Source: Saprospiraceae bacterium
GTDB lineage: Bacteria > Bacteroidota > Bacteroidia > Chitinophagales > Saprospiraceae
NCBI GenBank assembly: GCA_043744275.1
Contig: JAYTUY010000012.1
Coordinates: 5,403 to 69,402 of the forward strand
Length of the DNA stretch: 64,000 nt
Direction: 5' to 3'
Positions 1 to 63,802 of the stretch are shown here, piece by piece. Numbering within the stretch: position 1 is the first letter of the stretch; every line of letters begins with the position of its first letter. The notes under the pieces are model-generated. The model had not been told where the DNA came from, did not search any database, and saw only the letters and a program-made list of their open reading frames with translations. The translations under genes and the position numbers were made by a program.

Positions 1-745
1 AGAGGCAGGCTTGCGCGAATGGAATAAAAATATACCTGAAGAAATCAATAAATTACTCACGGATGCTGTAACTGATTTATACTTTTGCCCGACTCAAACA
101 GGCGTAGATAATTTAGAAAAACAGGGCATCATTGAAAACGTATTCAATACAGGTGATATAGGTATTGATTTGATTGCCAATAATTTAGATAAAATTGAGA
201 ACAATAAATCACTGCTTGAAAAACTTGAAATGACTGAGGGGTCTTATTTTTTTATGACCTGTCATAGAGCTTCAAACACCAATGATGTTGAAAATTTAAA
301 ACAAATTTTGAGCATTTTTGAAGACATCAACGAGCCTATTATTTTCCCAATTCACCCCCGTACAAGAGCTATTATTGAGCAAAATGGACTCGGTCATTTC
401 TTAGAAAAAAAGAATGTGAAAGCCATTGAGCCCATTGGTTTTTGGGATACTCAGACGCTTATTCGCCATGCTAAAATGGTTTTGACAGACTCAGGTGGCG
501 TTGTGAAAGAAGCCTATTTTCATCAAGTTCCGTGCTTGATTATGGATCAACAAATCGAGTGGATTGAGTCAGTCAATGAAGGTTGGAGCCATATTGTCGG
601 CGCGAGTCAAGAGAATATTTTAAACAAAATTCATAACTTTGGGATGCCCACATTGCAAAGCCATTTTTTAGGAAATGGTACAGCAGCGAAGCAAATTGTC
701 TCACATTTGAAGGCGTTTTTATTGAAAAAGAAAGCAAATGTCTAA
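1..745 (+). CDS. wecB: UDP-N-acetylglucosamine 2-epimerase family protein, C-terminal part (5' end outside window; the TTG at 11 is internal)
   Basis: The frame is open from the window edge. Motifs FPIHPRTR and VLTDSGGVVKEA fit the Epimerase_2 fold. A hydrolysing NeuC-type enzyme cannot be excluded. Confidence 0.7.
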   Translation, partial: EAGLREWNKNIPEEINKLLTDAVTDLYFCPTQTGVDNLEKQGIIENVFNTGDIGIDLIANNLDKIENNKSLLEKLEMTEGSYFFMTCHRASNTNDVENLKQILSIFEDINEPIIFPIHPRTRAIIEQNGLGHFLEKKNVKAIEPIGFWDTQTLIRHAKMVLTDSGGVVKEAYFHQVPCLIMDQQIEWIESVNEGWSHIVGASQENILNKIHNFGMPTLQSHFLGNGTAAKQIVSHLKAFLLKKKANV

Positions 746-2207
746 ATTTATAGAAAAATTAAAATTTAAGATTTGGCATCCTTACCTCATAATTTTATAT
801 TTTATATTGAAAAATGCCGATGATATTCACCTGCCTATGTTTCAGTGGATAGAGGCTGTTGGCATATTTTTAATTCTTTCGAGCATCATTTTCCTTATTT
901 TATTGATTGCCAAAAAAACACCGTTGAACACCCTAAAGGTTAGTTTACTCATCACTTTTGCCAGCGGCATATTGCTTTTTTTACTCCCCATTTTCAGCAC
1001 ATTCAATTATTTATACCCCTCAGTATTTGAACGTGTGAGGCAAGTTCTCCTGTTTTCTTCTATAATTTGGCTTATTTTAAGTGCATTTATTTTGTTGAAA
1101 AAGAAAAAAACATTCATTGGACTCAATTATTATCTCAATGTTTTACTTATAACCTTTTGTACATGGGAGCTTGCGAAGAGTGGTTACGAATCATTGATGG
1201 CTTCTGAGGAAACGTATTCAAATGTCAGTTCAACCTCATTAAAATCAAAATACAGTATTTATTTAATCGTGCCTGATGGCTATGCGTCGTCAAAAAATCT
1301 GAAAAATTATTGGCAATTTGACAATACTGAATTTGATAATTATTTAAGTCAAAAAGGTTTTTTTAAAGCCTCCAACAGTCATTCAAACTATAAATATACG
1401 GTGTTGACAATGGGGTCAAGCTTGAATATGACTTATTTTGTATCTCGTTCAGAGCCATATATTGCCAGCCAAATAAAGCGAAATCAAACGTGTAAAGTCT
1501 TGGATAAGCTAAATTATGACTGCTTTATGCTCGATTTTAGCGGCAATAATTACAAATATGACTCGAAAAATACTCAAGTTGATTTCAAATTATTGCTCTA
1601 CATGCAGTCTGCCGCTTATTTGATTTGTGAATCTTTAGGAGTAGAAATTTTCAAGGATTCTTATATGACCAATAATAAAGTTTTTACTCAATTTGAGTCT
1701 TATTTAGATGCTTCAAAAAAGCAATTTATTTATATGCACTCCATGATTACGCATCCGCCTTTTTATGATAGAGCGGAAGATAGTCCTGAAAAAAATGATA
1801 CAACATTGAATAGAATTCTCGACAAAATGGGAAGTGATGAATGGTTGTTTAGGAAAAATACTTGGCGAAGTATTGGCTCGCTGCAAGACGATGAGTACTT
1901 AAAACATATATATTTAAGTAAGATAAAATACACCAATCTGCAAATTCAAAATACCTTAGATAAAAATTGGGAGACCTTAAAAAATAGCGTTGTCATCGTA
2001 ATGAGTGATCATGGATTTAGAGAATTGCCTGGTTCAATACAAGATGTAAAAGCAGAAACTTACACCAATTTTTGCGCAATTTACTACCCAGATAAAAATT
2101 ATTCAGCATTAAATGACTCCATTACGCCTATCAATGTGATAAGAATGGCATTGAATAAAGCCATTGATTCACAACTTAAATATATTCCTGATAGAACAAA
2201 TTTATAA
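738..2207 (+). CDS. membrane-anchored sulfatase/alkaline-phosphatase superfamily protein (LTA-synthase or phosphoethanolamine-transferase-like)
   Basis: The N-terminal half is hydrophobic and multi-pass. The C-terminal half carries VVIVMSDHGF. It overlaps the upstream gene by 8 nt. Confidence 0.55.
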   Translation: MSKFIEKLKFKIWHPYLIILYFILKNADDIHLPMFQWIEAVGIFLILSSIIFLILLIAKKTPLNTLKVSLLITFASGILLFLLPIFSTFNYLYPSVFERVRQVLLFSSIIWLILSAFILLKKKKTFIGLNYYLNVLLITFCTWELAKSGYESLMASEETYSNVSSTSLKSKYSIYLIVPDGYASSKNLKNYWQFDNTEFDNYLSQKGFFKASNSHSNYKYTVLTMGSSLNMTYFVSRSEPYIASQIKRNQTCKVLDKLNYDCFMLDFSGNNYKYDSKNTQVDFKLLLYMQSAAYLICESLGVEIFKDSYMTNNKVFTQFESYLDASKKQFIYMHSMITHPPFYDRAEDSPEKNDTTLNRILDKMGSDEWLFRKNTWRSIGSLQDDEYLKHIYLSKIKYTNLQIQNTLDKNWETLKNSVVIVMSDHGFRELPGSIQDVKAETYTNFCAIYYPDKNYSALNDSITPINVIRMALNKAIDSQLKYIPDRTNL

Positions 2208-2325
2208 TCAACGTCAATTTTTTGTAAGAATCTAATTATTTAAAAATTGACATAATAAACCTTAATTTTACGCAAAAAAGGGCTTCAAAAGCCCCTTTAT
2301 TCACTATTTTGCAATAAAAATTTTA

Positions 2326-3066
2326 ATGATAATCGCCATTCACCAACCCAATTATTTACCTTGGCTGGGCTATTTCTATAAGATTTGGGCGAGTGACATT
2401 TTCGTTTTGCACGACAATGTTGAGTTTACGAAGCAGAGTTTTACGAAACGCGTTTTTATCCGAAAATCAGCCAATTCTACTGAGGCGACCTATCTGAGTG
2501 TGCCTTTAAAAAAACACAGTGATTTTATTTTTATAAAAAATTTAAAAATTTCTACTGAGCAAAATTGGCAAAAAAGCCATTTGAATAAAATTTATAACAC
2601 CTATCATCGCACGCCATTTTTTAATCATTATTACCCCATTATTTCTAAGACTTTACTCGATTCTTATTTGACTGAAAGTTTAGCCGAATTGAATAAAAAA
2701 TTAATTTTAAATATTTTAAATATCTTAAACATTGATAGTCAAATAGTTATGTCGTCTGATTTGCCTTTGTCGGGCTATCGGGCAGATGAATTTAATGCGG
2801 CGATTGTAGAGCATTTGGGCGGCAGTGTTTATATCAGCGGCACGGGTGCTAAGAAATATCAATCTGAAAATACATATCAAGAGCGCAATATTGCTTTGAT
2901 GTACAATCAAATCGGTAAATTTTTAAACAGCACACCCCCTCAGTATCCAACACATTTTATGGGAAATTTAAGTATTTTAGACGCTCTATTTTACATCGGA
3001 GAAAAAGAAATTTTAAATATATTTGAGCAGTATTTTCTATCGCAACAAAAAGTAGTAACAGTCTAA
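2326..3066 (+). CDS. WbqC family protein (polysaccharide-cluster associated)
   Basis: The N-terminus MIIAIHQPNYLPWLGYFYKI is the hallmark start of WbqC-like proteins (recalled from memory). Confidence 0.75.
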   Translation: MIIAIHQPNYLPWLGYFYKIWASDIFVLHDNVEFTKQSFTKRVFIRKSANSTEATYLSVPLKKHSDFIFIKNLKISTEQNWQKSHLNKIYNTYHRTPFFNHYYPIISKTLLDSYLTESLAELNKKLILNILNILNIDSQIVMSSDLPLSGYRADEFNAAIVEHLGGSVYISGTGAKKYQSENTYQERNIALMYNQIGKFLNSTPPQYPTHFMGNLSILDALFYIGEKEILNIFEQYFLSQQKVVTV

Positions 3067-3078
3067 TCAAATTATTTC

Positions 3079-4917
3079 ATGAAAAACCCAACCCGTCTTT
3101 TTGATTTTATTTATCATCAAAATGACAATTATCCGCAAGAGAAAGCCTTTTCTTATAGGCATGAGGGCAAAGAAGTCAGCTCTTTTTCAACGGCTCAAAT
3201 TATTGAATTAGCCAATAAAGTGAGTTGTGGCTTATTAAAATTAGGCTTGAAACCGGGCGATAAAATCACTTCCATCATCGTTAAAAATCGCCCTGAGTGG
3301 ACGATTTTGGATTTGGGTATGATGCAAATCGGTGTCATCAATGTACCTGTTTATCCCTCTATCAGTTCATCGGATTATGTCTATATTTTCAACGATGCGG
3401 AGGTGAAAATGTGCTTTATTGGCGATGATACTGAGGGGTCTGTTTTTAAAAAAGTAAAAATAGCGCAAAGCACTGTGCCTTCATTATCAACGATTTATAC
3501 ATTTGATAAAACAGAAAATATTCCTTTTTGGGAAAATATTTTGCAAAATACTGAGGGGTATCAAAGCGAAGTGGATAGAATAAAAAAGACGGTTTTACCA
3601 ATCGATTTAGCCACCATAATTTACACTTCTGGTACGACAGGGCAGCCAAAAGGCGTGATGCTTTCGCATGAAAATATTGTCTCGAATATCAAATCAACAA
3701 TGCCCGTTGTGCCTATTCAAGCGGGTGATAGAGGTTTGAGTTTTCTACCATTGAATCATATATTTGAGCGCGTTTGCTCGTATGCCTACATGTATGCAGG
3801 GGCGAACGTGACATTCACGGGCGTTGATAATCTGGGCGGCGATAATGGCGATTTGAAAGCCGTGCAACCACATTTTTTTACAACTGTTCCACGACTTTTA
3901 GAAAAAGTTTATGAAAAAATATACAACAAGGGCTTGGAACTGAGGGGTCTGAAACGCGCTATTTTCTTTTGGGCGTTGCGGCTCACAGACGATTACGATT
4001 ACGATAAAGAATATACGGGGTTTAAAAAATTCCAAATGAGCATCGCTGATAAACTCGTTTTTACTAAGTGGCGTGAGGCTTTGGGCGGCTCTATAAAAGG
4101 CATCGTGGTGGCAGCGTCGCCTTGCCCGATGAAAATTTTGAAGACATTTTCAGCCGCCGGCATTCCTGTTCGCGAAGGCTATGGCTTGACAGAATCCTCG
4201 CCCGGTATTTCTATCAACCGCTTCGATAAGGGCATGTCGCGGATTGGATGTGTAGGCTCAGTACTCAATGGCGTGGAAGTCATGATTGACAGCAGCGATG
4301 GTAATTATGCCAAAAACGAAGGCGAAATCCTATCGAGTGGACTCAATACCATGATGGGCTACTACAATAAACCTGAAGAAACGGCAAAAGTCATCAAATA
4401 TATAGACGGGAAACGCTGGCTTTGCACGGGCGATATTGGCAAATTTGAAGAGCAAAATGGCTTTAAGTTTTTGAAAATAACAGACCGTAAAAAGGAACTA
4501 CTCAAGACTTCGGGCGGCAAATATGTAGCACCTGCACCAATTGAAAATAAATTTCGTGAAGACTTTTTGATAGAGCAAATAATGGTGGTGGGCGACAATC
4601 AAAAATTCGTTTCAGCGTTGATTGTTCCAGCTATTGATGCGCTCAAAGATTGGTGTCAACATCATGGCATTACTTGGACGCAGCTTTCAGAAATTGTTGA
4701 TAATCAAGAAGTTGTGAAAAAATATAAAGAAATTTTGGAAAAATACAACCCTAATTTTAGCCACGTAGAGCAAGTAAAAGTCTTTCGCCTCGTAGCCGAT
4801 AATTGGGAACCTGTGAAAGCCGATGGTTCTGTTGGCGAGTTGACACCGACGATGAAACTCAAGCGGCGTGTGATTTTGCAGAAATATAAAAGTATCATTG
4901 AAGAAATCTATAAATAA
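3079..4917 (+). CDS. long-chain fatty acid--CoA ligase (AMP-binding enzyme)
   Basis: AMP-binding signature IIYTSGTTGQPKGVMLSH, plus the GYGLTE and TGDIG motifs. Length is 612 aa. Confidence 0.85.
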   Translation: MKNPTRLFDFIYHQNDNYPQEKAFSYRHEGKEVSSFSTAQIIELANKVSCGLLKLGLKPGDKITSIIVKNRPEWTILDLGMMQIGVINVPVYPSISSSDYVYIFNDAEVKMCFIGDDTEGSVFKKVKIAQSTVPSLSTIYTFDKTENIPFWENILQNTEGYQSEVDRIKKTVLPIDLATIIYTSGTTGQPKGVMLSHENIVSNIKSTMPVVPIQAGDRGLSFLPLNHIFERVCSYAYMYAGANVTFTGVDNLGGDNGDLKAVQPHFFTTVPRLLEKVYEKIYNKGLELRGLKRAIFFWALRLTDDYDYDKEYTGFKKFQMSIADKLVFTKWREALGGSIKGIVVAASPCPMKILKTFSAAGIPVREGYGLTESSPGISINRFDKGMSRIGCVGSVLNGVEVMIDSSDGNYAKNEGEILSSGLNTMMGYYNKPEETAKVIKYIDGKRWLCTGDIGKFEEQNGFKFLKITDRKKELLKTSGGKYVAPAPIENKFREDFLIEQIMVVGDNQKFVSALIVPAIDALKDWCQHHGITWTQLSEIVDNQEVVKKYKEILEKYNPNFSHVEQVKVFRLVADNWEPVKADGSVGELTPTMKLKRRVILQKYKSIIEEIYK

Positions 4918-4920
4918 AAA

Positions 4921-5433
4921 ATGGCTTTAATAAAACCTGTCAATGGCATAGAACCGAAGTTCGGTCAAAACTGTTACTTAGCTGAAAATGCGACGATAGT
5001 TGGCGATGTTGAAATGGGCGACGATTGCTCGGTTTGGTTCACGGCTGTGGTTCGGGGCGACGTCAATTCTATCCGAATGGGCAACAAAGTGAATGTGCAA
5101 GATGGGGCAGTGATTCATTGCACCTATAAATTATCGGTGACCACTATCGGCAACAACGTCTCAATTGGGCATCGCGCCTTGGTGCATGGGTGTACGATTC
5201 ACGACAATGTGCTCGTAGGCATGGGGGCGATAGTGATGGATAATGTGGTTGTGGAATCCAACGTTTTGATAGCGGCGGGCGCAGTGGTGCTTGAAAATGC
5301 CCACCTCGAATCGGGTTTTATCTACGCAGGAGTGCCTGCAAAAAAAGTGAAACCCCTCAGTATAGAAGCCTTTCAGCACAATATCGAGCGCATTGCTAAC
5401 AATTATGTGATGTATGCGGACTGGTTTAGATAG
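4921..5433 (+). CDS. gamma carbonic anhydrase family / hexapeptide-repeat protein (YrdA/PaaY-like)
   Basis: Hexapeptide left-handed beta-helix repeats run through the protein. It starts 3 nt after the upstream stop. Confidence 0.8.
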   Translation: MALIKPVNGIEPKFGQNCYLAENATIVGDVEMGDDCSVWFTAVVRGDVNSIRMGNKVNVQDGAVIHCTYKLSVTTIGNNVSIGHRALVHGCTIHDNVLVGMGAIVMDNVVVESNVLIAAGAVVLENAHLESGFIYAGVPAKKVKPLSIEAFQHNIERIANNYVMYADWFR

Positions 5434-6935: not shown

Positions 6936-7553
6936 ATGAAAATTAATTTTAATTTAAAAGTCCTTGATTTTCAAAAAGTTGATGGCTTAATGCCTGCTAT
7001 TATTCAAGATGCCACTACTTCCAAAGTGTTGATGCTGGGATATATGAACGAAGACGCGCTTTTGAAGACATGTACTGAGGGGGTCGTGACGTTTTTCTCT
7101 CGCTCTAAAAATCGGTTGTGGACGAAGGGCGAAACTTCTCAAAATTTCCTCCACGTCGTGAGTATCAAAGAAGATTGTGATGCCGATACGCTGCTGATAA
7201 AAGTGAAACCTGATGGACCCACCTGTCATACAGGGGCGGATACGTGTTGGAATGAAAAAAATATAGACAGTGATTTCTTAAAATATCTTGAAAAAATAAT
7301 CCAACAACGCAAACTTGAAGACCCCTCAGTATCAACGAGTTACACCAATTCTTTATTTCAAAAAGGCATCAATAAAGTGGCTCAAAAAGTGGGTGAAGAA
7401 GCCGTCGAATTGGTCATAGAAGCCAAAGACGATAACCGCGATTTGTTCCTCAACGAAGCGGCTGATTTGATGTATCATTATATCGTCTTGCTCGCTGCTA
7501 AGAATTTTGAACTGGAAGATGTGTTGAATATTTTAAGAGAAAGAAATGCTTAG
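6936..7553 (+). CDS. hisIE: bifunctional phosphoribosyl-AMP cyclohydrolase / phosphoribosyl-ATP diphosphatase
   Basis: HisI core MLGYMNEDAL...WTKGETSQNF...DCDADTLL...CHTG is followed by a HisE-type C-terminal helical domain. Confidence 0.9.
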   Translation: MKINFNLKVLDFQKVDGLMPAIIQDATTSKVLMLGYMNEDALLKTCTEGVVTFFSRSKNRLWTKGETSQNFLHVVSIKEDCDADTLLIKVKPDGPTCHTGADTCWNEKNIDSDFLKYLEKIIQQRKLEDPSVSTSYTNSLFQKGINKVAQKVGEEAVELVIEAKDDNRDLFLNEAADLMYHYIVLLAAKNFELEDVLNILRERNA

Positions 7554-7710: not shown

Positions 7711-8958
7711 ATGTCATTTGAAAACTCACTCGCCTACGCCCGTGCCCTCGATGCACAAGACCCTTTAAAAAACTTTCGGGATGAATTTCACTGCCCAATG
7801 CACAACGGCGAACGCGCCATTTATTTCTGCGGCAATTCTCTCGGCTTGCAACCCAAAGCGACTGAAATAGCCATCCAATATGAACTCGATTATTGGAAAA
7901 AATATGGTGTGGAAGGTTGGTTTTCAGGAGAAACGCCGTGGCTGAGTTATCATAAAAATATGTCGGAATTGGCTGCTCTCATCGTCGGTGCGCGACCTGA
8001 AGAGGTGATAATTATGAACACTTTGACGGTCAATTTGCATTTAATGATGGTCTCTTTTTATCGCCCCACATCAAAACGGTTTAAAATATTGATGGAAGGC
8101 GGAGCATTCCCAAGCGACCAATATGCCATAGAAACCCAAGCCCGTTTTCATGGATTCGACCCCTCAGTATCTATCATAGAATTAATGCCGAGAGAAGGTG
8201 AAGACTGTTTAAGAACAGAAGATATTTTGCAAGTCATTGAAAATGAAGGCGATACGCTTGCATTAATTTTATTAGGTGGTATTAATTATTACACAGGGCA
8301 ATTTTATGATATTGAAAAAATTACAGCAGCAGGTCATCGCGTGGGTGCGCAAGTCGGCTTCGATTTAGCCCATGCGGCGGGTAATGTACCCCTCAGTCTG
8401 CACGATTGGAACGTGGATTTTGCGGTGTGGTGTACTTACAAATACCTCAATTCAGGACCGGGTGGCGTGAGTGGGGCGTTTGTACATACTCGACATTTTC
8501 AAGAGAATCTCCCCCGTTTTGCAGGTTGGTGGGGGCATGATGAAGCACAGCGTTTCAAAATGGAAAAGGGATTTATTCCGATGGTCGGTGCAGCGGGTTG
8601 GCAGGTTTCAACGGCTCAAATTATTCCTTTAGCGATGCATAAAGCGAGTTTAGAGATTTTCAAAAAAGCAAGAGGTATGGCTGTTTTAAGAAAAAAAGCC
8701 TTGAATTTGACGGCTTATTTAGCATATTTATTAGAACAATCGTCGCATCATTTCAAAATAATTACCCCCTCAGTATCAGAGGAACGTGGCACTCAATTGT
8801 CCATTTTAACTGATGAAAATGGTAAAAAACTCTTTGATTATTTGTCTGAAAATGGTGTGATTTGCGATTGGCGAGAGCCGAATGTGATTCGATTGGCACC
8901 TGTTCCGTTGTATAATTCGTTTGAGGAAGTTTGGCGTGTGGGGGAGTTGATGAAGTGA
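7711..8958 (+). CDS. kynU: kynureninase
   Basis: The WCTYKYLNSGPGGVSG PLP-lysine region and overall kynureninase-like sequence. Length is 415 aa. Confidence 0.9.
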   Translation: MSFENSLAYARALDAQDPLKNFRDEFHCPMHNGERAIYFCGNSLGLQPKATEIAIQYELDYWKKYGVEGWFSGETPWLSYHKNMSELAALIVGARPEEVIIMNTLTVNLHLMMVSFYRPTSKRFKILMEGGAFPSDQYAIETQARFHGFDPSVSIIELMPREGEDCLRTEDILQVIENEGDTLALILLGGINYYTGQFYDIEKITAAGHRVGAQVGFDLAHAAGNVPLSLHDWNVDFAVWCTYKYLNSGPGGVSGAFVHTRHFQENLPRFAGWWGHDEAQRFKMEKGFIPMVGAAGWQVSTAQIIPLAMHKASLEIFKKARGMAVLRKKALNLTAYLAYLLEQSSHHFKIITPSVSEERGTQLSILTDENGKKLFDYLSENGVICDWREPNVIRLAPVPLYNSFEEVWRVGELMK

Positions 8959-11402: not shown

Positions 11403-11861
11403 TTACTGCACAAACACTTCCCTCCTAAATTTAGAAATCATTTTTTTCATGCCTTTCTCAATTTCTTCATAAGACAATTCTTCTTTGGCGACATACATCA
11501 CCATAAACGCAAATTGCTTACCCCTCAGTATCGAGGCATCTGGATGGTCATTTAAAAAATTATACAGCGAAATTTTGTTCAAACGATAGGCTTCGCGTAG
11601 GCGGCGGCGCAATATATTGCGGTCAACAGCGCGTTTAAAATTCTTTTTTGGAACGGTCAGAGAGAATTGAATGGGAAATGGCGGTGGCACAATCGGCAAA
11701 ATAATTCCCTGCTCCGTATCTTCGGAGGGGGCAACTGGGGCGTCATTGGCTACTTCAAGAAAAACTAAACGAAGTGGATAACAACTAAAAGAACGACCCT
11801 CTTTGAAAAGGCGAGAGATGATTTTTGTACTTTTAAGGCGTTCTTCTTTGTAGAATTTCAT
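11403..11861 (-). CDS. rnpA: ribonuclease P protein component
   Basis: It lies immediately downstream of rpmH. It has the KEERLKS...IISRLFKEG start and a basic RNR-like stretch ILRRRLREAYR. At 152 aa it is long and has an internal Pro-rich insert. Confidence 0.85.
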   Translation of the reverse strand: MKFYKEERLKSTKIISRLFKEGRSFSCYPLRLVFLEVANDAPVAPSEDTEQGIILPIVPPPFPIQFSLTVPKKNFKRAVDRNILRRRLREAYRLNKISLYNFLNDHPDASILRGKQFAFMVMYVAKEELSYEEIEKGMKKMISKFRREVFVQ

Positions 11862-15610: not shown

Positions 15611-15712
15611 ATTTTAACTTATAGATAACTCATTGATAATAACACCTTAACTGAGGGGGTCATAGTTTTGCATCATGAAATTTGATTCAATAACTTTTAA
15701 ATTCATCTCCTT

Positions 15713-24212: not shown

Positions 24213-24521
24213 TTAAAAAAGAGATTGATGATAAAAAATAGTTGCAAAATATATAGATGGTAGCACCAATTTATCATTGCGAACGGAGGTTTGCAAACTG
24301 ATAACATTTAAAAGATGCAAATGTAATGATTTATCCAACGATTTAGAAACGTGCTTTGTTATTCAACCATACTTAAACATATCTTAAAAAAATTAGAAAA
24401 CCTTTTTAAAACTGTAAAATACTGAGGGGGTATCGCTGAATCAATTTATGTAGAAAAATATTTTTTTACAAAAAAAACCGTCAAAATAGTACCAGCCCAA
24501 TGCTTTGCCCTATCTTTGCAC

Positions 24522-35462: not shown

Positions 35463-35545
35463 GTATTTATTTTCACTAAAAGAAAGACCTTAAGTAATAA
35501 AATACTGAGGGGGTATGATTAGATAAGGTATTGATTATCAATTAG

Positions 35546-38642: not shown

Positions 38643-38721
38643 ACAGAACCTGATAGATTTTTACTGAGGGGTATTATTACGACCTAAAAACTGCTAAAAC
38701 CATCGTTTTGAAATGAAAATT

Positions 38722-41658: not shown

Positions 41659-41729
41659 TACTGAGGGGGTAGGGCAGAAGTTACTCTAACAGTCTAATGT
41701 CTATTTTTCTAAATTCTAAAATAACGGCA

Positions 41730-51826: not shown

Positions 51827-52707
<881 letters not shown>

Positions 52708-52831: not shown

Positions 52832-52907
52832 CAACTCTTATTTTGAAAATGGGGTAAAAGTGATGTAAATACTGAGGGGGTGTCTATTATAAGTTCTTAA
52901 AAATAGA

Positions 52908-53126: not shown

Positions 53127-54887
53127 ATGTACAGAACGCACAATTGTGGCGCATTACGCCTTTCGGATGCTGGAAAAGAAGTAACATTGAGTGCTTGGGT
53201 GGATGCTACCCGCGCTTTCGGACCCATGACTTTCGTGGATTTGCGCGACCGCTACGGCATCACGCAAGTCGTTTTTGAAAATAACGAAACGCTGAATAAG
53301 CAAGCGGCGAGCCTCGGACGTGAATATGTCATCAAAGTGGTTGGCACGGTGCGTGAGCGGACAGCGAAAAATCCGAACCGCCCGACAGGCGATATTGAAG
53401 TCGTGGCGGCTACGCTCGAGGTTTTGAACGTTTCAAAAACACCTCCTTTCACCATTAAAGATGATACGGACGGCGGCGACGATATTCGCATGAAATATCG
53501 TTACTTGGATTTGCGGCGGGCGGCTGTGCAGAAAAATCTATTTTTCCGTTCGCAAGTGGCTATTGAGGTGCGTAAATATTTGAGCGGTGAAGATTTTATT
53601 GAAGTCGAAACGCCTAATTTGATTAAATCTACGCCCGAAGGTGCAAGGGATTTCGTGGTGCCAAGCCGCATGAATGCAGGGCAATTTTATGCTTTGCCGC
53701 AATCGCCTCAGACGTTTAAGCAGCTACTGATGGTGTCTGGTTTTGATAAATATTTTCAAATCGTGAAATGTTTTAGGGATGAAGATTTACGAGCAGACCG
53801 TCAACCTGAGTTCACTCAGATAGATTGCGAAATGTCGTTCGTAACGCAAGAAGATATTTTGAACACCTTTGAAGGTTTGACAAAACACGTTTTCAAAACG
53901 GCTTTGAATGTTGATTTGCCTGCATTCCCACGCATGACATATGATGAGGCGGCGAAGCGTTATGGCTCGGATAAGCCAGATATTCGCTTCGGAATGGAGT
54001 TTATGGAGCTGAATGATGTGGCTAAAAATAAAGGCTTTTCCGTATTTGATTCGGCTGAATTAATCGTCGGTATTTGCGCTGAAGGCGTGGCTTCTACTTA
54101 CACCAATAAAACGTTGGGTGAATTGACGGATTTCGTAAAACGCCCTCAAATCGGTGCTAAAGGCATGATTTATGTCAAATTTGAAGAAGATGGTACAGTG
54201 AAATCGCCTATTTCTAAATTTTATTCAGATGAAGATTTGAGAGCTTGGGGTGAAAGATTTGGTGCTAAAAATGGTGACGTGTTGTTCATTTTAAGTGGTG
54301 AAACGGATAAAACTCGTAAGCAACTCAGTGAATTGCGCTTAGAAATTGGTTCGCGCAAAGGCTTGCGTGACCCCTCAGTATTTAAGCCATTATGGGTCGT
54401 AGATTTTCCATTGTTGGAATGGGACGAGGAGACGCAACGCTTTTATGCGATGCACCATCCGTTCACATCGCCTAAGCGTGAGCAAATCCCTTCGATGCTC
54501 AATGGTGACCATGAAACGATGAAAAACTTGCGGGCGGATGCTTATGATTTAGTCCTGAATGGTGTTGAAATCGGCGGCGGTTCTATCCGTATTTATGACC
54601 GTGAATTGCAGTCTAAAAACTTCACTTTGCTCGGCATGACGGAGGAAGAAGCAGAAGCCAAATTCGGTTTCTTACTGGGAGCGTTTGAATTTGGTGCGCC
54701 ACCTCATGGCGGCATTGCTTTTGGTTTCGATCGCTTGTGTGCGGTGATGTCGGGTAGCAATTCGATTCGCGATTTTATTGCTTTCCCTAAAAACAATCAA
54801 GGGCGCGATATTATGATAGATGCACCTTCCGTGATTGATGATAAGCAATTGGAAGAGTTGAGCATTGCCGTTCATATTGAAGCATAA
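53127..54887 (+). CDS. aspS: aspartate--tRNA ligase
   Basis: Class IIb motifs [18 protein letters not shown] and [10 protein letters not shown], with an OB-fold N-terminus. Confidence 0.95.
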
Positions 54888-55005
54888 AACATTGATTTTG
54901 AATACTTTAAAAGCCGTTTCGATATGTCGTGGCGGCTTTTTTAACACCCCCTCAGTAAAAACAAGAAAATTTCTTAATTTTCTTGAAAAATTGTATATTT
55001 GAGTT

Positions 55006-55438
55006 ATGATGACATTACTCAGCGAAAACGACCGATTTATTCCTTTCACGTCCGACTATGGTTTTAAAGTAACCTTCAGATTTAGAAAAATTAATTTTTA
55101 CAATGAAAATGCTCAACGTCATAGATGAACCTACTCAATATCCACAATTTTGGACAGAGGAATGGTTGAAAATTGCGCTCCATGAATTGGATACGCGCTA
55201 CATGACCCCTGAAAAAAGAGCGGCATTTGAAATTATAGTAGCCAATAATGCTTACGCTGTTCGATTGGAAAATGAAAGAGTTGCTAAGGCAGAGGCAGCA
55301 GCTAAAATAAAAGGCATGGCTGAGGGGAAAGCTGAAAGTAATATTACATTTGCTCGTTTAATGAAATTGAATGGTGAGCCTATAGAAAAAATTAAAACCT
55401 ATACAGGCTTAAACGAAGATGAAATTAATGCACTATGA
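55006..55438 (+). pseudogene. internally deleted remnant of an Rpn/PD-(D/E)XK-family putative transposase gene
   Basis: A 40-aa ORF (RFIPFTSDYGFKVTF, a typical family N-terminus) abuts, in another frame, a 111-aa ORF that resembles the family C-terminus (...TYTGLNEDEINAL). The nuclease core is missing. Confidence 0.5.
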
Positions 55439-55500
55439 AATATATCTGATTCTAAAATGACATATAGATTTGGTGTAAAAACATGAAAATACTGAGGGGG

Positions 55501-55804: not shown

Positions 55805-57382
55805 TTATCCTAATCGAATCTCATCTTCATGATCATCGAAAAATTTAAACATCGTGAGTGGATATTCAGGTTCGGGCACCATCGTAATCCAACGTTGATA
55901 TTTGAAATACCACTTCCATACTTTATTTGGGAAGCCTTTTTTCAAATATGCTTCTACAAAAGGGTGTACATGTAGGAACAATTTACCTTTCGGACGAGAC
56001 AATAGGATAAAGTCGAGGTCTCTATCAATATCATCCGTCAACAAAACGGTTGGTTGTACCTTGCCTGTGCCGTTGCAAGATGGGCAAATTTCAGCCGTAT
56101 TAATTTTCAATTCAGGTCGAACGCGTTGGCGTGTAATCTGCATTAAGCCGAATTTACTGAGGGGTAGTATGGTGTGCTGCGCACGATCCTTGACCATAAA
56201 GTTCTTCATCACATTTTGAAGTTCTTTCTTATGCTCAGGGTCTTTCATATCAATGAAATCCACAATAATAATACCGCCCAAATCGCGTAAACGCAACTGC
56301 CGGGCAATCTCCTCAGCTGCTTCTACATTGACAGCCAAAATAGCATCGTCGCTGGATTGCGAACCGACTTTATGACCGCTGTTGACATCTACCACGTGCA
56401 TGGCTTCAGTATGCTCGATAATAAGATACGCGCCGCTCGGCATCGTTGCTGCCTTGCCAAATGAGGCTTTTATTTGACGATGAACGCCATGATGGTCAAA
56501 AATATGCTTCGCTCCTTTGTATTGCTGAACAATTTTTATTTGATCAGGTGCAAAACCTGCAAGAAAATTTTTGACACCTTCGTAAGTGTCTTTGTCGTCA
56601 GCAATTACGCGCGTAAACGTATCGTTCAGCAAATCGCGCAATATACTGGTTGTTTTGTCAAGCTCGCTGAGGAGCTTGGTAGGCGGCGTTGCCTGTTTGA
56701 GTTGCAAAAAGATTTTCTCCCATTTGGAGGTCATTTGCAACATCTCTTCGTGCAGCTCTGCCGTTTTTTTACCTTCGGCAGCCGTGCGCACGATGACGCC
56801 AAAATTCTTAGGTTTGATACTCTCCGCTATATTTTGAAGCCTTTTTCGCTCTTCAGAACTGGAAATTTTCTTCGATACTGCTATCACATCCGTGAAAGGA
56901 GTGAGTACAAGAAACCGACCTGGGATAGTGATTTCACAACTCAACCTTGGTCCTTTCGTTCCGATAGGTTCTTTCAGAATCTGCACCAATATATGTTGGC
57001 GTTTTGCCAGCACTTGGTCCACTTTACCGTTTTTGTTTATATCCGGTTCGATTCTAAAATTGTCGAGATTAGCAGTATTGTAGCCATTAGAGAGAACACC
57101 ATCGGTATATTTGAGGACATTTTTGAGTTTTGGTCCCATGTCAGTATAATGCAAAAAAGCATCTTTCTTATGACCAATGTCCACGAATGCAGCGTTCAAC
57201 CCGGGCATCAATTTTCTGATTTTGCCGATAAAAATATCGCCAACGGCAAAATCATTGCTAATTTCTTCGTGATGCAGTTCAACTAATTTTCCGTCTTCGA
57301 GAAGTGCGATTTCAACCTCAGTAGGCGTAGAGTGGATAACAAGTTCTTTTTCCACAATCGTACTGGTTTGACTGATGGGCAA
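55805..57382 (-). CDS. rng: Rne/Rng family ribonuclease (RNase G-like)
   Basis: S1 domain VGDIFIGKIRKLMPGLNAAFVDIG, catalytic IIIVDFIDM, and a CPSCNGTG zinc-link. The TTG start at 57382 is uncertain; GTG 57355 is possible. Confidence 0.85.
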   Translation of the reverse strand: MPISQTSTIVEKELVIHSTPTEVEIALLEDGKLVELHHEEISNDFAVGDIFIGKIRKLMPGLNAAFVDIGHKKDAFLHYTDMGPKLKNVLKYTDGVLSNGYNTANLDNFRIEPDINKNGKVDQVLAKRQHILVQILKEPIGTKGPRLSCEITIPGRFLVLTPFTDVIAVSKKISSSEERKRLQNIAESIKPKNFGVIVRTAAEGKKTAELHEEMLQMTSKWEKIFLQLKQATPPTKLLSELDKTTSILRDLLNDTFTRVIADDKDTYEGVKNFLAGFAPDQIKIVQQYKGAKHIFDHHGVHRQIKASFGKAATMPSGAYLIIEHTEAMHVVDVNSGHKVGSQSSDDAILAVNVEAAEEIARQLRLRDLGGIIIVDFIDMKDPEHKKELQNVMKNFMVKDRAQHTILPLSKFGLMQITRQRVRPELKINTAEICPSCNGTGKVQPTVLLTDDIDRDLDFILLSRPKGKLFLHVHPFVEAYLKKGFPNKVWKWYFKYQRWITMVPEPEYPLTMFKFFDDHEDEIRLG

Positions 57383-58058: not shown

Positions 58059-58145
58059 AAAATTAAAATGACAATTTTAACTAAAAAAAGTCTTTTCTAA
58101 TAAAAAACTCATTTTATCCCATTCATCAAGGCTTATACTGAGGGG

Positions 58146-59927: not shown

Positions 59928-60806
59928 ATGCTCCTTTCAATGACCGGTTACGGACGGGCAACTCGTACTTTTGACGATAAAAGCATCACCATTGAGGTGC
60001 GCGCTTTGAATTCTAAAATGACGGATATCCGTTTCAAAATGCCTTATAATTATAAGGCTAAAGAAATAGAACTTCGCCGTATCCTCACTGATCAGGCTGA
60101 GCGTGGGAAGATTGATGTATCCATTAATATCAAATCGCTTACTGGAGAAGATGATTTTGCTTTGAATCATGAGCTTTTCAAAAAATATTACAAGGAACTG
60201 AAAGGGCTGACTCATGAATTGGATTTGCCTGCCAACGATTTATTGTCTGCTATTTTGCGCTTGCCTAATATTGTCGGCACTGACGAAGAAGGTGTGCCTG
60301 ATGAAGAGTGGGAAGTAGCACAGCAAACCCTCAATGAAGCACTCGAAGACTTCAAAAAGTTCCGTTTTACTGAGGGGGGTGCTATGGAGAAAGATTTGTA
60401 TGATAGGATAGCCAATATCCTCAATTTGCTCAAAGCCATTGTACCTTATGAAAAAGAACGGATTGTCAAATTGCGTCAGCGGCTGCGTCAAAATCTTGAA
60501 GAGTTTTTAGGAAAAGAAAATGTAGATGAAAATCGTTTTGAGCAAGAAGTCTTATTTTATCTCGAAAAAATAGACGTGACGGAAGAAAAAATACGCCTTG
60601 AGCAACATTGCCGCTATTTCAAAGAGACTTTAGACGATAAAAAAAATACTTCAAAAGGTAGAACCCTTAATTTTATCACTCAAGAAGTGGGGCGGGAAAT
60701 TAATACTTTAGGTTCAAAAGCCTATTCGTCAGAAATTCAACATTTGGTCGTACAAATGAAAGATGAATTGGAAAAAATGAAAGAGTTAATCGCTAATTTG
60801 GTTTAA
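59928..60806 (+). CDS. yicC: YicC/YloC family endoribonuclease
   Basis: The MLLSMTGYGRA start and the C-terminal REINTLGSKA block. I moved the start from 59853. Confidence 0.85.
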   Translation: MLLSMTGYGRATRTFDDKSITIEVRALNSKMTDIRFKMPYNYKAKEIELRRILTDQAERGKIDVSINIKSLTGEDDFALNHELFKKYYKELKGLTHELDLPANDLLSAILRLPNIVGTDEEGVPDEEWEVAQQTLNEALEDFKKFRFTEGGAMEKDLYDRIANILNLLKAIVPYEKERIVKLRQRLRQNLEEFLGKENVDENRFEQEVLFYLEKIDVTEEKIRLEQHCRYFKETLDDKKNTSKGRTLNFITQEVGREINTLGSKAYSSEIQHLVVQMKDELEKMKELIANLV

Positions 60807-61369
60807 TGAATAAGTTAATCATAGTCACTGCACCATCGGGAGCAGGCAAAACAACAATTGTCCATCATCTTTTAGAAAAATTTGATGAATTGGCTTTCTC
60901 TGTGTCGGCTACTAATCGAGCGAAAAGAGTTCATGAAACAGATAGCGTAGATTATTACTTCTTTTCCACTGATGATTTTAAACGCCTTGTTACTGAGGGG
61001 GCGTTTTTGGAGTATGAAGAAGTGTATGAAAATCAATTTTATGGTACTTTGAAATTGGAAATTGAAAGGCTGTGGTCACTTGGCAAATGCATTATTTTTG
61101 ACGTGGATGTGAAAGGGGCTACCAATATTCAAAAAGCCTATCCTACTGAATCGTTATCTATTTTTATAAAACCGCCTTCCAAAGAAATACTCTTCGAACG
61201 GTTAAAAAACCGCAAAACTGAAACGCCTGAAAGCCTTCGTAAGCGAATTGCCCGCGCTACCGAAGAGTTAGCTTACGAAAATCGGTTCAATAAAGTCATC
61301 GTCAATGATGATTTAGAGAAAGCACTCAGCCAAGCTGAAAAAATAGTATTAGAATTTATCCGAACTTAG
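60806..61369 (+). CDS. gmk: guanylate kinase
   Basis: P-loop APSGAGKTT and YYF...F motifs. Its start overlaps the yicC stop. Confidence 0.9.
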   Translation: MNKLIIVTAPSGAGKTTIVHHLLEKFDELAFSVSATNRAKRVHETDSVDYYFFSTDDFKRLVTEGAFLEYEEVYENQFYGTLKLEIERLWSLGKCIIFDVDVKGATNIQKAYPTESLSIFIKPPSKEILFERLKNRKTETPESLRKRIARATEELAYENRFNKVIVNDDLEKALSQAEKIVLEFIRT

Positions 61370-61821: not shown

Positions 61822-61889
61822 AAACGTAGCGCGGAACTCCAGTTCTGCATTTTACTGAGGGGGTAGTTATTTATTTCATAATGTGTTAC

Positions 61890-61997: not shown

Positions 61998-62714
61998 TTA
62001 TTCCTTCGGCAAACTAAAAATAGTTTTATCAAGCTTTGGATTAAGCTCCACTTTATCCGCTTTGATAACCATACCTGTCTGACCATTGAGTTTGTTCTCG
62101 ATAGTATGCGGTATCATCAAACCATCCACTTCTTTATAATCACTCAAAAAAGTTTCGACAGCCTGACCTTTCATCGGACCAGATGAAGCAAAAGAGCGAA
62201 TCATAACAGGTACAAAATTCTCAGCATCGATAAAATATATTTTTTCATCGCCTACTTTGCGTTTCAATTTCAATTTGAAACATTTTGCGCCATCTATTTC
62301 CTCTTTACCATCTAACTCAACGGTATGACCTTTGGTTTTATAATCAATAAAATCATCTTCAAACGGCTCTTTAGCAGCATCGGCTGTTTCTTCTTCCGTT
62401 TTTTTAGTCGGTTTATTCATAGTTGCAAATGGGCTACATTGCCAAGCAGTAGTGCCATCGAACGCATCAACGAATTTTTGACCCTGAAAATCGCCTTCCT
62501 GACGCGTCATATTGGGGCGCATTGAAGACGCTGTAAATGGAATATTCATCCCTTGAACCACTACAAAACCTGTTTGGCGCATGGATTCTAATTTTTTCCA
62601 TTTCTCTACACCGCCTACGGCTTTAATGTATTTTTCGACGATTTCATCGGCTGTCTGAGCTTGTACCATGAAGGCTGTTAAAAACAAACCTAAAATGAGC
62701 GTGAATTTTTTCAT
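61998..62714 (-). CDS. secreted protein, outer-membrane lipoprotein-sorting (LolA-like) family candidate
   Basis: I moved the start to MKKFTLILGLFLTAFMVQAQ. The TADEIVEKYIKAVGG start resembles that family (recalled from memory). Confidence 0.5.
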   Translation of the reverse strand: MKKFTLILGLFLTAFMVQAQTADEIVEKYIKAVGGVEKWKKLESMRQTGFVVVQGMNIPFTASSMRPNMTRQEGDFQGQKFVDAFDGTTAWQCSPFATMNKPTKKTEEETADAAKEPFEDDFIDYKTKGHTVELDGKEEIDGAKCFKLKLKRKVGDEKIYFIDAENFVPVMIRSFASSGPMKGQAVETFLSDYKEVDGLMIPHTIENKLNGQTGMVIKADKVELNPKLDKTIFSLPKE

Positions 62715-62914
62715 CTGTACTATTTTTTGTTTTGTTAAATGTTTAAAAATAACTTTTATTAAAAAAAAATTGACTATCAATTTATTGCAAAATAAATAAC
62801 AATTGATTGAAGCTACAAAAGAAATTTCCCTGCACCTGCTTTGAAAAAATACTTTACAAACAATTGGAAATAAACGACGAAAATTGTTTCCTCATTGTCA
62901 AGAAGAAAAACCAT

Positions 62915-63802
62915 TTAAACCAAATCGCTCAACAAAGCCAATTTTGCACCCATATCTGTATTGCCTTTTTGTAGTTCTTCTTGAGCCAATAAATGCAACC
63001 CCCTCAGTATATTGCCCGAATAAAGTATCTTTTGAACGCGATTATCTTTTTTCAAAGTTAAGATTTCTTCTTTAGGTGGTAAAGCTATGAGGCTGGCAAT
63101 TTGAGCAATATTATTGCCCGTCAACACTTCGCTTTGGCGAATACTGAGGGGTAGCCCATCGTAGCCCAAAACGATAGGACGCTCAGGCTGCACAATTTCA
63201 AAAACAGCGTCGCCACTCGCTCGGGTGTAATATGCCCGACCGAGCCTGCCTACGAGGTCTATTTTATAGGGGTCAATCCGCCTTTTATCAGCATCCATCA
63301 CATCTTCAGAAACATGGATACACAAAACATTGCAAATAATCAGACACCCTGCGCCCCCCTCAGTACCCAAGGGTAAAATCCGATCCACGCGGCATTCCAA
63401 TTGCACGGGCGACTCTTTCACTCGAAATGGGCGCACCAAATCTGAAGCCAATGGCGTCAATCCTGCTTTCTCAAATTCATTCACCCCTTTTGGATAATTA
63501 ACTGCCGTGAGGGTCATTTGCCGAACAATGCTATGGCTCACCATATTAATAACACATTCCATCGTCTCTTCTACGTTGCTCAAGGTATCTTTAGTCGTGC
63601 CATCCTGTACGCGCTTACCGACTGAGAAAACCACAATTGGGGGATTAGCACTGAAAGCATTGAAAAAACTGAAAGGCGCGAGGTTGGTATTGCCTTCTTT
63701 ATCCATTGTGCTGACAAATGCAATAGGGCGAGGTGCCACAGATGCGATTAAAAACTGATAAAAATCAGGGTTAGAGGTTGTCTGTGGGTCAATTCTTATC
63801 AT
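62915..63802 (-). CDS. flavin reductase family protein (FMN-binding split barrel)
   Basis: VAPRPIAFVSTMDKEGNTNLAPFSFFN block. ATGA start/stop overlap with aat. Confidence 0.8.
   Translation of the reverse strand: MIRIDPQTTSNPDFYQFLIASVAPRPIAFVSTMDKEGNTNLAPFSFFNAFSANPPIVVFSVGKRVQDGTTKDTLSNVEETMECVINMVSHSIVRQMTLTAVNYPKGVNEFEKAGLTPLASDLVRPFRVKESPVQLECRVDRILPLGTEGGAGCLIICNVLCIHVSEDVMDADKRRIDPYKIDLVGRLGRAYYTRASGDAVFEIVQPERPIVLGYDGLPLSIRQSEVLTGNNIAQIASLIALPPKEEILTLKKDNRVQKILYSGNILRGLHLLAQEELQKGNTDMGAKLALLSDLV

Follow-up and report, generated by a model that had tools for sequence, protein, structure and literature searches.

A hyper-abundant non-palindromic word in one Saprospiraceae clade as a candidate Bacteroidota analogue of DNA uptake sequences

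The genomes of Haemophilus influenzae and Neisseria meningitidis are ~1.8 Mb and ~2.2 Mb in size, respectively. The former contains 1,465 USS cores and the latter 1,892 DNA uptake sequences (DUS) (quoted in PMC7811141), and only two families, both proteobacterial, are known to take up DNA in a sequence-specific manner (PMC12616744). The USS of Haemophilus are flanked by phased AT tracts, which contribute to uptake (PMC7811141), and temperate phages of the Pasteurellaceae accumulate USS (PMC6776037). The 64-kb stretch of DNA analysed here (the window) is ordinary chromosome of an uncultured member of the Saprospiraceae (Bacteroidota). The 10-mer TACTGAGGGG occurs in this chromosome at a density of ~1 copy per kb on both strands, and a literature search did not find it as a microbial motif, in line with the initial annotation, to which the word was not known as described. 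The presented results suggest that this word is a counterpart of DNA uptake sequences which arose independently in the Bacteroidota, a reading to which we assign a rough probability of 0.55.

The core CTGAGGGG is present in 63 copies in the window (31 on the plus and 32 on the minus strand), whereas 0.49 were expected from dinucleotide shuffles, the largest value of which was 3. Fifty-four of these copies extend to TACTGAGGGG (0.03 expected), and the over-representation amounts to ~130-fold for the core and ~2000-fold for the 10-mer. The hyper-abundance and the extension of most copies beyond the core, both claimed in the initial annotation, are therefore confirmed. Its list contained nearly all starts, but missed one plus-strand copy (55320, GGCTGAGGGG) and placed three starts off by one (41289, 50685 and 54371 are correct, not 41290, 50686 and 54370). 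Gene calling based simply on ORFs assigns 51 copies to coding sequences, close to the 50 or so estimated before, and 12 to intergenic DNA. The codon-preserving shuffle, named beforehand as a refutation test, left the claim standing, since shuffling synonymous codons with all protein sequences and codon usage kept gave a coding-sequence mean of 0.82 (largest 6 in 1000) vs 51 observed. This persistence agrees with the proposal that the force at work targets the word as DNA. One-off variants showed a modest excess (24 vs 2.1 expected), as would be expected if mutation and drive balance.

The genic copies, which are TACTGAGGGG unless another form is given, begin at 232..241 (+, GACTGAGGGG) in ORF 11-745 (UDP-GlcNAc 2-epimerase), followed by 1016..1025 (-) in ORF 738-2207, 2936..2945 (-) in ORF 2326-3066, 3429..3438, 3549..3558 and 3938..3947 (all +, the last AACTGAGGGG) in ORF 3079-4917, and 5353..5362 (-) in ORF 4921-5433. 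ORF 6936-7553 (hisIE) carries 7073..7082 (+) and 7322..7331 (-), and ORF 7711-8958 (kynureninase) 8160..8169, 8389..8398 (GACTGAGGGG) and 8766..8775 (all -). Single minus-strand copies are located at 11521..11530 in ORF 11403-11861 (rnpA), 12994..13003 in ORF 12183-13271, 18930..18939 in ORF 18315-19814 and 20070..20079 in ORF 19871-21223 (MatE), while 14418..14427 (+) and 15425..15434 (-) share ORF 13234-15537, and 16661..16670 (+), 17421..17430 (-) and 17995..18004 (-) share ORF 16477-18150. Further along the window, copies are found at 40168..40177 (+) in ORF 39685-40974, 41287..41296 (+) in ORF 41133-41594 (Lrp/AsnC), 44313..44322 (+) and 44960..44969 (-) in ORF 44179-45588 (Mur ligase), 46103..46112 (-, GACTGAGGGG), 46286..46295 (-), 46590..46599 (+) and 47272..47281 (-, GACTGAGGGG) in ORF 45565-47421, 49376..49385 (+) in ORF 49334-50002, 52342..52351 (-, GACTGAGGGG) in ORF 51856-52707 and 54371..54380 (-) in aspS (53127-54887). 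The copy absent from the earlier list, which is the weakest (GGCTGAGGGG, 55318..55327, +), lies in ORF 55103-55438; beyond it are 56155..56164 (+) in an RNase E/G gene (55805-57382), 60368..60377 (+) in ORF 59853-60806 (YicC), 60991..61000 (+) in gmk (60806-61369), and 63000..63009 (-), 63142..63151 (+) and 63356..63365 (-) in ORF 62915-63802. Intergenic copies occupy 15649..15658 (AACTGAGGGG), 35503..35512, 37161..37170, 38662..38671, 41659..41668, 52870..52879, 55490..55499, 58136..58145 (adjoining the stop of ORF 58146-58919) and 61853..61862, all on the plus strand, and 54948..54957 (-), immediately 3' of a terminator-like hairpin and outside it. The preference of the intergenic copies for AAAATACTGAGGGGGT proved to be a tendency only, with four exact matches and at least five G in 9 of 12.

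The identical word was found in every relative down to ~69-71% PepN/GatA identity, at 0.6-1.15 copies per kb. The motif-bearing loci are L001, L002, L004, L006, L201-204, L215 and L217 (down to 69% PepN and 71% GatA), and the clade members are uncultured and all metagenome-assembled. Seven independent clade loci gave 0.87 copies per kb over 177 kb, a density which matches the USS and DUS counts of H. influenzae and N. meningitidis. The word was absent at PepN identities of ≤63% (L205, L005 and L003), from the Haliscomenobacter-type locus L216 and from ~70 other Saprospiraceae/Chitinophagia loci. The distribution is all-or-none with the same word throughout, and no sequence 'dialects' were seen, unlike in DUS/USS. 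Where sequences align at 85-87% nucleotide identity, the word was kept exactly at 13 of 14 sites, compared with 36-37% of random 9-mers. The pepN copy (21844..21853, +; gene 21235-23862, -) is kept in L001, L004, L201, L203 and L204, and L002 encodes DPSVL there by different codons. The copies kept in L006 are 24420..24429 (+) and 29443..29452 (-), both intergenic, 26257..26266 (-), 26743..26752 (-) and 26949..26958 (+, GACTGAGGGG; one-off in L201/L203, ..GGGA) in ORF 26037-27056, 27911..27920 (+), 28179..28188 (-) and 28431..28440 (+) in asnS (27883-29319), and 32162..32171 (-) in ORF 31814-32386 of the atp region. The same sites were found again in independent assemblies (NCBI, ENA, JGI, Logan). 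The copies are also spaced more evenly than random in the window (CV 0.76 vs 0.98, P=0.014), with a largest gap of 3343 bp vs a mean largest gap of 4707 bp for 63 random points. The earlier claim of absence from AT-rich islands found no statistical support. Positions 8774-11520 (2.75 kb) and 37171-38663 (1.5 kb) lack copies and the atp region has one, but these stretches are not significant and the gaps are within range for 63 random points.

The word is also carried by phages. A Mu-like phage (L206/L214), which is of a temperate type, contains 23 copies in 21.6 kb, and a second lineage (L219) contains 9 copies in 11 kb; the word is present also in L084 and L140. Host motif density is thus reached in two or more phage lineages, including the Mu-like one, whereas relatives of the motif-bearing phages contain zero copies. 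This accumulation resembles that of USS, but the host-level density in L219, whose lifestyle is unproven, would also fit a protective self-marker on duplex DNA. In such a case the word would be an orientation-independent, Chi-like 'stop degrading' signal to a nuclease, a repair system or a defence system of the host, each site would be directly useful, and phages would be selected to mimic the word. The very high per-site conservation, the small number of one-off variants, the even spacing with no gap above 3.3 kb, the host-level density in at least two unrelated phage lineages whose relatives have none, and the saturation of compatible tripeptides all speak for this explanation. However, we know of no orientation-independent degradation-stop system, which counts against it, and the balanced strands (78:76) and duplex-phased A-tracts are unlike Chi-type signals. 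Moreover, sitewise selection on ~3,000 sites per genome (a rough estimate) would be harder to sustain than drive, and the temperate type of the Mu-like phage is covered by an uptake model too. A self-marker is therefore considered unlikely.

The extended signal spans ~45 bp around the core (A/T)TACTGAGGGG(G/T), all nine to ten positions of which are equally sharp. Three to four A-tracts precede the core on its 5' side in a 10.5-bp phase (A = 56% at -13, p=1e-11; Fourier peak 10.5 bp; column-permutation P < 2e-4), and a T-rich patch follows 13-19 bp downstream. The phasing holds for sites fully within genes, controls were flat, and apart from this weak composition phasing the flanks are random, with no conserved sequence. 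Phased A-tracts adjoin the core as they do in Haemophilus USS. They also imply an intrinsically bent duplex, and together with the even spacing, the strand symmetry and the conserved sites they are compatible with a sequence-specific nucleoid-associated or other architectural protein which, bound at dense sites, would bend or wrap DNA and so structure the chromosome on a kilobase spacing. The window includes an HU-family gene (59066-59380), though such genes are ubiquitous. This architectural role is rather improbable, since it leaves unexplained both the all-or-none clade boundary and the match of phage to host density alongside motif-free relatives. To our knowledge, there is also no nucleoid protein with an exact 10-mer site enriched ~2000-fold in coding sequences at amino-acid cost. 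Inverted pairs of the motif occasionally form strong terminator-like hairpins, in a host relative and in phage, and such inverted repeats are known from DUS/USS. About half of DUS/USS lie in predicted terminators, whereas all 12 intergenic copies of the window lie outside hairpins and terminators.

The word has left a clear imprint on proteins. It is read in five frames, as the initial annotation stated; the sixth, which puts TGA in frame, has 0 copies. The tripeptides LRG, TEG, PLS, PSV and PQY are enriched 3.4-3.6-fold in the clade and 0.65-0.85-fold outside it, and the word accounts for 50 of their 55 occurrences, which is near saturation. Compared with outgroups, GatA required residue changes at three of its four motif sites, all on the minus strand: NTEGLP at 50388..50397 (HETGLP in outgroups), DILRGQ at 50869..50878 (EWLKAQ etc.) and KILRGF at 51445..51454 (KILEGF etc.), the last being the reading noticed earlier. 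At 50685..50694 (RTEGFS) the residues are universal and codon choice makes the word. The tripeptide and GatA comparisons agree with the proposed origin by residue and codon choice and not by insertion. The saturated codon choice, the enrichment of host and phage DNA alike, and a clade boundary as sharp as if one enzyme had been gained are also what a HIP1-like by-product of sequence-specific mutation, repair or modification might leave, for instance through a methyltransferase or mismatch-repair system converting near-matches. This origin is likewise doubtful: a repair bias normally concerns one mismatch type at one position, which does not suit a uniformly sharp core, and it would not make A-tracts tens of bases off, even spacing or inverted-pair hairpins. 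Furthermore, the word is non-palindromic, unlike HIP1 and most methylation sites. This property, the phased A-tracts, the phage accumulation and the occasional hairpin pairs place it nearer USS/DUS than HIP1, the two analogues originally proposed, and all tests run agree with that proposal.

Chi-type signals are recognised on a single strand by an enzyme moving along the DNA; they show a strand skew and a much lower enrichment. A classical Chi (RecBCD/AddAB) or a KOPS/AIMS-type polar chromosome signal, usually G-rich and non-palindromic as TACTGAGGGG is, does not fit and is very improbable because the strands are balanced (31:32 in 64 kb; 78 plus and 76 minus over the 177 kb of the seven clade loci), which bears out the earlier view. 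Relative to genes, 28 coding-sequence copies in the window are sense and 23 antisense, a runs test revealed no orientation switch along the window, density and fold-enrichment are well above those of known Chi sites, and duplex-phased flanks would be irrelevant for single-strand scanning. MITE/REP remnants or an assembly or sequencing artefact would account for the high copy number and nothing more, and their probability is negligible given the otherwise random flanks, the in-frame copies inside conserved housekeeping proteins and the recurrence of sites in independent assemblies.

Under the preferred reading, an uptake-sequence analogue, the ~45-bp signal with its core TACTGAGGGG would be read as duplex by a DNA-binding component of the machinery with which one Saprospiraceae clade imports or exchanges DNA, and this component would favour word-bearing fragments. 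Word-bearing alleles would therefore be imported and recombined more often than word-free alleles, and this conversion-like 'molecular drive', possibly assisted by selection for kin exchange, could have raised the word to ~1 copy per kb on both strands, in genic and intergenic DNA, and spread it into temperate phages resident in the clade genomes. We infer natural competence, a receptor identity and a bias acting at uptake as opposed to a later exchange step; no competence or pilus genes were found within the 64-kb window. The codon near-saturation and strong per-site conservation could be explained just as well if each site were itself under selection. Summarizing, the behaviour of the word is that of the uptake signals in the families of Neisseria and Haemophilus, and it may thus represent the first self-recognition tag of the uptake-signal type outside the Proteobacteria.

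There are 63 copies of the core CTGAGGGG in the 64-kb window (31 on the plus strand and 32 on the minus strand), whereas dinucleotide-preserving shuffles gave a mean of 0.49 and a maximum of 3 copies. The 10-mer form, TACTGAGGGG, was found 54 times against 0.03 expected, an enrichment of about 2000-fold; its own sub-words aside, no 9- to 12-mer of the window is more frequent. In the initial annotation the copies had been listed correctly, save that one copy (55320) had been missed and three starts were off by one. The logo of the word is (A/T)-T-A-C-T-G-A-G-G-G-G-(G/T), beyond which no base is conserved in sequence, and the word is non-palindromic, with CCCCTCAGTA as the reverse complement of the 10-mer. 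Simple ORF-based gene calling yielded 56 ORFs and a coding share of 86%. The coding sequences contain 51 copies (81%; 28 sense and 23 antisense, in five reading frames) and the intergenic regions 12, which corresponds to 0.92 copies per kb of coding and 1.39 per kb of non-coding DNA. The codon-preserving shuffle proposed earlier, in which the proteins and the overall codon usage are kept, produced 0.82 copies (at most 6 in 1000 shuffles) against the 51 observed, so the enrichment stands. The spacing of the copies is more even than random (CV 0.76 versus 0.98, P=0.014), with a minimum distance of 120 bp between two copies and a widest gap of 3.3 kb, and word density is not correlated with GC content (Spearman 0.13). 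Accordingly, the AT-rich islands that the initial annotation had singled out as motif-free are no longer than expected by chance. One of them (9011-11260) carries four minus-strand ORFs without a Pfam match, one of which resembles conserved hypothetical families; another motif-free stretch, 37560-38642, contains a NERD-domain gene. Both may be accessory or defence-type DNA, although their gaps are not unusual statistically.

The window is ordinary chromosome, with pepN, guaB, asnS, an atp gene, mqo, gatA, aspS, an RNase E/G gene, an HU gene and gmk. The tRNA and Rfam scans of the window gave no matches, and on these empty scans, together with the occurrence of the word in both orientations relative to genes, an RNA-level element was rejected. 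Two further features of the window were recorded independently of the word. At 6137-6533, low-complexity Ala/Leu-rich ORFs of 123 and 125 aa overlap on both strands; they match no Pfam or Rfam family, and possibly both are spurious. Short tandem arrays of 7-bp units, the unit differing from array to array, lie between genes directly at their ends or starts, namely at 11864-11930 (TGAGTTA x4.9 adjoining TCATAAC x4.4), 15584-15610 (TTCACTT x3.9), 19818-19865 (ATTACCT x6.9), 27687-27718 (AATTAGG x4.6) and 51827-51857 (ATTCATC x4.4).

The PepN and GatA homologues place the window in uncultured Saprospiraceae (Bacteroidota), and the closest cultured relative among the homologues seen is Haliscomenobacter hydrossis, with 68% GatA identity. 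An exact look-up of the PepN protein of the window matched no record. The distribution of the word was surveyed at contig scale in DNA fetched around orthologues, the GatA comparison being made through protein homologues and contig look-ups. At 0.57-1.15 copies per kb, the identical word was recovered from each relative whose PepN identity reaches 69% or whose GatA identity reaches 71% (loci L006, L001, L002, L004, L201-L204, L215 and L217, from independent NCBI, ENA, JGI and Logan assemblies). It is fully missing in the outgroup loci L205 (63%), L005 (61%) and L003 (57%) and in the Haliscomenobacter-type L216, as well as in about 70 further Saprospiraceae and Chitinophagia loci. Seven non-redundant clade loci, 177 kb in all, contain 154 copies (0.87 per kb; 78 on the plus and 76 on the minus strand). 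The lineage specificity is thus all-or-none, with one shared word.

No alternative dialect was found in other lineages among the loci surveyed, where the candidates were explained by tandem arrays, duplicated genes or repeats within proteins. The word TAAATGACCCC of L061 and L013, loci from other Saprospiraceae MAGs, was rejected because it belongs to local tandem arrays: units of about 11 bp, AAATGACCCC(T/C)T, are clustered at 2100-2700 and 13650-14050 of L061 and at 4560-4700 and 13400-13700 of L013 and are not dispersed. The candidate GACCCAGGGT of L015, a locus from a Lewinellaceae MAG, derives from a tandem array at 500-8100 in which a unit of about 1.8 kb recurs five times and inflates the k-mer counts, and the abundant word of L065 reflects repeated protein domains. 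That of L080 (Saprospiraceae chromosome OZ244050.1, 63% GC) was set aside as a different, small hairpin-like dispersed element. This element, GSCTTTCGSCAAAAC, is about 15 nt long and lies on both strands (for example at 922, 7231, 14790, 16395 and 18332), with 10 occurrences at up to one mismatch and 15 at up to two in 22.6 kb; G..C / C..G covariation suggests that it may form a tiny hairpin. A Chitinophaga sp. locus, L072, has AAAGAACT ten times in 18.7 kb (1203-15224; 0.9 expected), nine of the ten on one strand, a pattern that could reflect a polar word of the KOPS or Chi kind in that genome.

Within the clade, the sites are maintained. Thirteen of the 14 alignable window sites, intergenic ones included, are exactly kept in relatives at 85-87% nucleotide identity, compared with only 36-37% for random 9-mers of those alignments. 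Turnover was also visible, as full sites of L006 are matched by one-off variants in the window and L201 has a one-off variant at a window site, and in the PepN of L002 the DPSVL peptide is kept with different codons. Counts over 134 kb of clade DNA gave 112 exact 10-mers (0.05 expected) and 24 one-off variants (2.1 expected), of which ten are altered at the first and least constrained position; two-off variants number 42. The corresponding numbers in the outgroup loci are 0, 0 and 9. The USS of Pasteurellaceae come with more degenerate copies per perfect copy than the present word.

The word has also left an imprint on the encoded proteins. The five usable reading frames encode LRG, TEG, PLS, PSV and PQY, and in the window 50 of the 55 such tripeptides are encoded by the word, which means that the compatible sites are nearly saturated. 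These tripeptides exceed the expectation from amino-acid composition 3.6-fold in the window and 3.4-fold in the other clade loci; outside the clade the same ratio is 0.65 in the nearest outgroups and 0.85 in other Saprospiraceae. The GatA gene supports the earlier proposal that the word is made by residue and codon choice and not by insertion. Its RTEGF peptide is family-wide, and the word arises there by codon choice alone in the window and in L217, while L215 and Haliscomenobacter have the peptide and not the word. The peptides KILRGF, DILRG and NTEGLP stand where the outgroups have KILEGF, EWLKA and HETGLP, and at these word sites the residues themselves were therefore changed.

The flanks were aligned on the motif strand, at 123 and then at 154 sites. 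Adenine is enriched at -3/-4 (69% at -3), -13/-14 (56% at -13, p=1e-11), -22 to -24 and -34/-35, with G+C-rich troughs at -8, -19 and -29; on the other side, from +13 to +19, there is a T-rich patch. Fourier analysis peaks at 10.5 bp (column-permutation P <2e-4), and the phasing persists in the 88 sites whose flanks lie entirely within genes. The controls, GGGG or ACTGA occurring outside the motif, had flat flank profiles. About 45 bp of duplex DNA, including the helically phased A-tracts, therefore make up the functional unit. This arrangement implies that it is bent or bendable double-stranded DNA that is recognised, and it counts against a single-strand or RNA reading of the word. Flanking AT tracts also contribute to uptake of the Haemophilus USS (PMC7811141).

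The word is carried by phages as well. IMG/VR was scanned with one 14-mer version, which returned mainly single chance matches and six stretches at host-like density. The first, L206/L214 (IMGVR_UViG_3300037309_000133), spans nearly all of a 26.5-kb contig and encodes a terminase, portal, Mu-F-like head protein, protease, major head protein, sheath, tape measure and baseplate; the contig ends with the gene of a MuB-like AAA_22+HTH protein. It is a nearly complete myovirus that probably infects this Saprospiraceae clade, and its gene content makes it a Mu-like and probably temperate phage. In L206, at 44.8% GC, there are 23 copies in 21.6 kb (1.07 per kb), spread over all modules; phages with terminases 63-65% identical to its own have none. 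The second, L219 (IMGVR_UViG_3300020050_013619), makes up the end of a 76-kb contig and encodes a helicase, a resolvase and three DNA methyltransferases. It has 9 copies in 11 kb (0.81 per kb), whereas in 18 viral loci that carry related genes the count is 0 or 1. The three methyltransferase genes of L219 (5639-6361, 7280-8557 and 10001-10987) lie within 5.5 kb, and one is fused to a ParB-like domain. L084 carries 11 copies in 14.5 kb beside a primase-helicase and an Ant-like anti-repressor, and L140 also has a high word density. The word thus accumulates in putatively temperate phages, whose relatives carry no copy or, in the case of L219, at most one. Copies in phages seemed at first to speak against an uptake signal. 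However, temperate phages of Pasteurellaceae, Mu-like ones included, gain USS to near host levels and large, probably lytic ones do not (PMC6776037), so the phage copies form a parallel instead.

Inverted pairs of the word produce strong hairpins of -22 to -42 kcal/mol, three in L206 (terminator-like, at 12217/12235, 15438/15460 and 21007/21034) and one in the host relative L201/L203, and some of them are followed by T runs. Approximately half of DUS and USS reportedly lie in predicted terminators (bioRxiv 10.1101/2025.10.24.684340). An association with terminators was rejected for the window, which has no inverted pairs and in which folding puts none of the 12 intergenic copies within a hairpin. 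The share of terminators and inverted pairs is therefore lower than in DUS and USS, but this trait is typical of those systems and not defining.

Taken together, the asymmetric 10-mer enrichment, the density near one copy per kb, divided equally between the strands, the location in coding and non-coding DNA, the restriction to one clade, the even spacing and the conservation with turnover all lead to a reading of the word as an independent Bacteroidota analogue of USS and DUS. The protein imprint, the phased AT flanks, the temperate-type phages and the inverted-pair hairpins lead to the same reading. With the exception of even spacing and turnover, these features match the descriptions of DUS and USS in the cited papers, and the probability of this reading is therefore put at about 0.55. 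Sequences of the DUS type are kept up by biased uptake with subsequent recombination. We infer that the bias acts at uptake and that these bacteria are competent, and the identity of the receptor would be a matter of inference as well. The DUS receptor is the ComP minor pilin, and ComN/PpdA is the proposed receptor of USS. Competence, pilus or receptor genes were not found among the 56 ORFs of the window or the Pfam-annotated neighbour genes of the clade loci, and no prepilin-like N-termini were seen in the four unannotated small ORFs at 9011-11260.

Among the other explanations, the word may mark duplex DNA as 'self', in either orientation, for a nuclease, repair or defence machine, although this appears rather unlikely. 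Such a system would be undescribed and bend-sensitive, with sites about every kb; it would rewrite codons and residues genome-wide and force phages to copy the word. That the copies are binding sites of an architectural protein, an explanation to be weighed beside the phased A-tracts, is considered somewhat less probable still. The same low standing is given to a by-product of repair or modification of the HIP1 type. The cyanobacterial HIP1 (GCGATCGC) is likewise hyper-abundant, with a copy in roughly every kb of genic and spacer DNA, and is maintained above neutral expectation. However, HIP1 is a palindrome tied to methyltransferase sites, whereas the present word is asymmetric, has oriented flanks and is common to host and phages. 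A classical polar signal is very improbable. Chi and KOPS/AIMS are also G-rich, non-palindromic and over-represented, and Chi sites can be phage-borne, but such signals are strongly replication-skewed and few-fold enriched. The present word, enriched about 2000-fold, is unskewed, both in the window (31:32, with a non-significant runs test and no orientation switch) and over the seven clade loci (78:76), in agreement with the initial annotation, which had already judged it unlike Chi or KOPS. A MITE or an assembly artefact can practically be dismissed, given the random flanks and the same word in independent assemblies; longer MITE-, REP- or NTS-like repeats were rejected on a logo without conserved sequence past the core to +/-60, the 81% of copies in coding sequence and the unfolded intergenic copies. 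The NTS/dRS3 of Neisseria, bound by Ssn nucleases, are abundant genomic repeats too and are linked to natural transformation, but each is a 28-nt intergenic hairpin clustered around certain genes (PMC11893778). The analogy was rejected, since a hairpin-less 10-mer spread evenly through coding sequence is not comparable.

Seen as an analogue of USS and DUS, the word can be compared directly with both. The USS of Pasteurellaceae (Hin-type AAGTGCGGT, Apl-type ACAAGCGGT) resemble it in the short non-palindromic core, the density of about one per kb on both strands and in genic and intergenic DNA, the helically phased AT tracts adjoining the core, the lineage restriction, the even spacing, the gain in temperate phages, Mu-like ones included (PMC6776037), the occasional inverted pairs as terminator-like hairpins and the imprint on encoded peptides. 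They differ in that the word is unrelated in sequence and belongs to the phylum Bacteroidota, that its phased tracts are situated on the 5' side, across three to four turns, and that the window copies are hardly ever in terminators. The DUS of Neisseriaceae (GCCGTCTGAA and its dialects) share with it the length of 10-12 nucleotides, copy density, strand symmetry, clade specificity, coding-sequence copies with frame preferences and inverted-repeat pairs, whereas the present word is all-or-none, no dialects having been found in neighbouring lineages, and its terminator link is weak. The principle of DUS and USS appears to be shared, but with an independent origin in another phylum and an anatomy of its own, which consists of the 5' phased A-tracts, the weak terminator association and the all-or-none presence without dialects.

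A full-text literature search for the word and its complement returned eukaryotic primers and similar matches only, and no paper tying uptake sequences to Saprospiraceae or Bacteroidota was found in the literature search. A 2025 paper (PMC12616744) states that just two families, both of them Proteobacteria, are known to take up DNA sequence-specifically. The origin, receptor and evolutionary rationale of such systems (molecular drive or kin-biased sex) are still debated from those two cases, and a third, independent case in Bacteroidota, if true, would make the phenomenon more general. With motif-bearing and motif-free sister lineages so sharply separated, the receptor is approachable by gene presence/absence and comparative genomics. 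Should the word have no role in uptake, the strong marks it has left on codons, residues, flanking DNA shape and phages would point to an unknown genome-wide process. If it is an uptake signal, it would indicate natural transformation with self-recognition in uncultured environmental Saprospiraceae, and it would provide a simple sequence tag by which metagenome contigs and phages may be assigned to this host clade.
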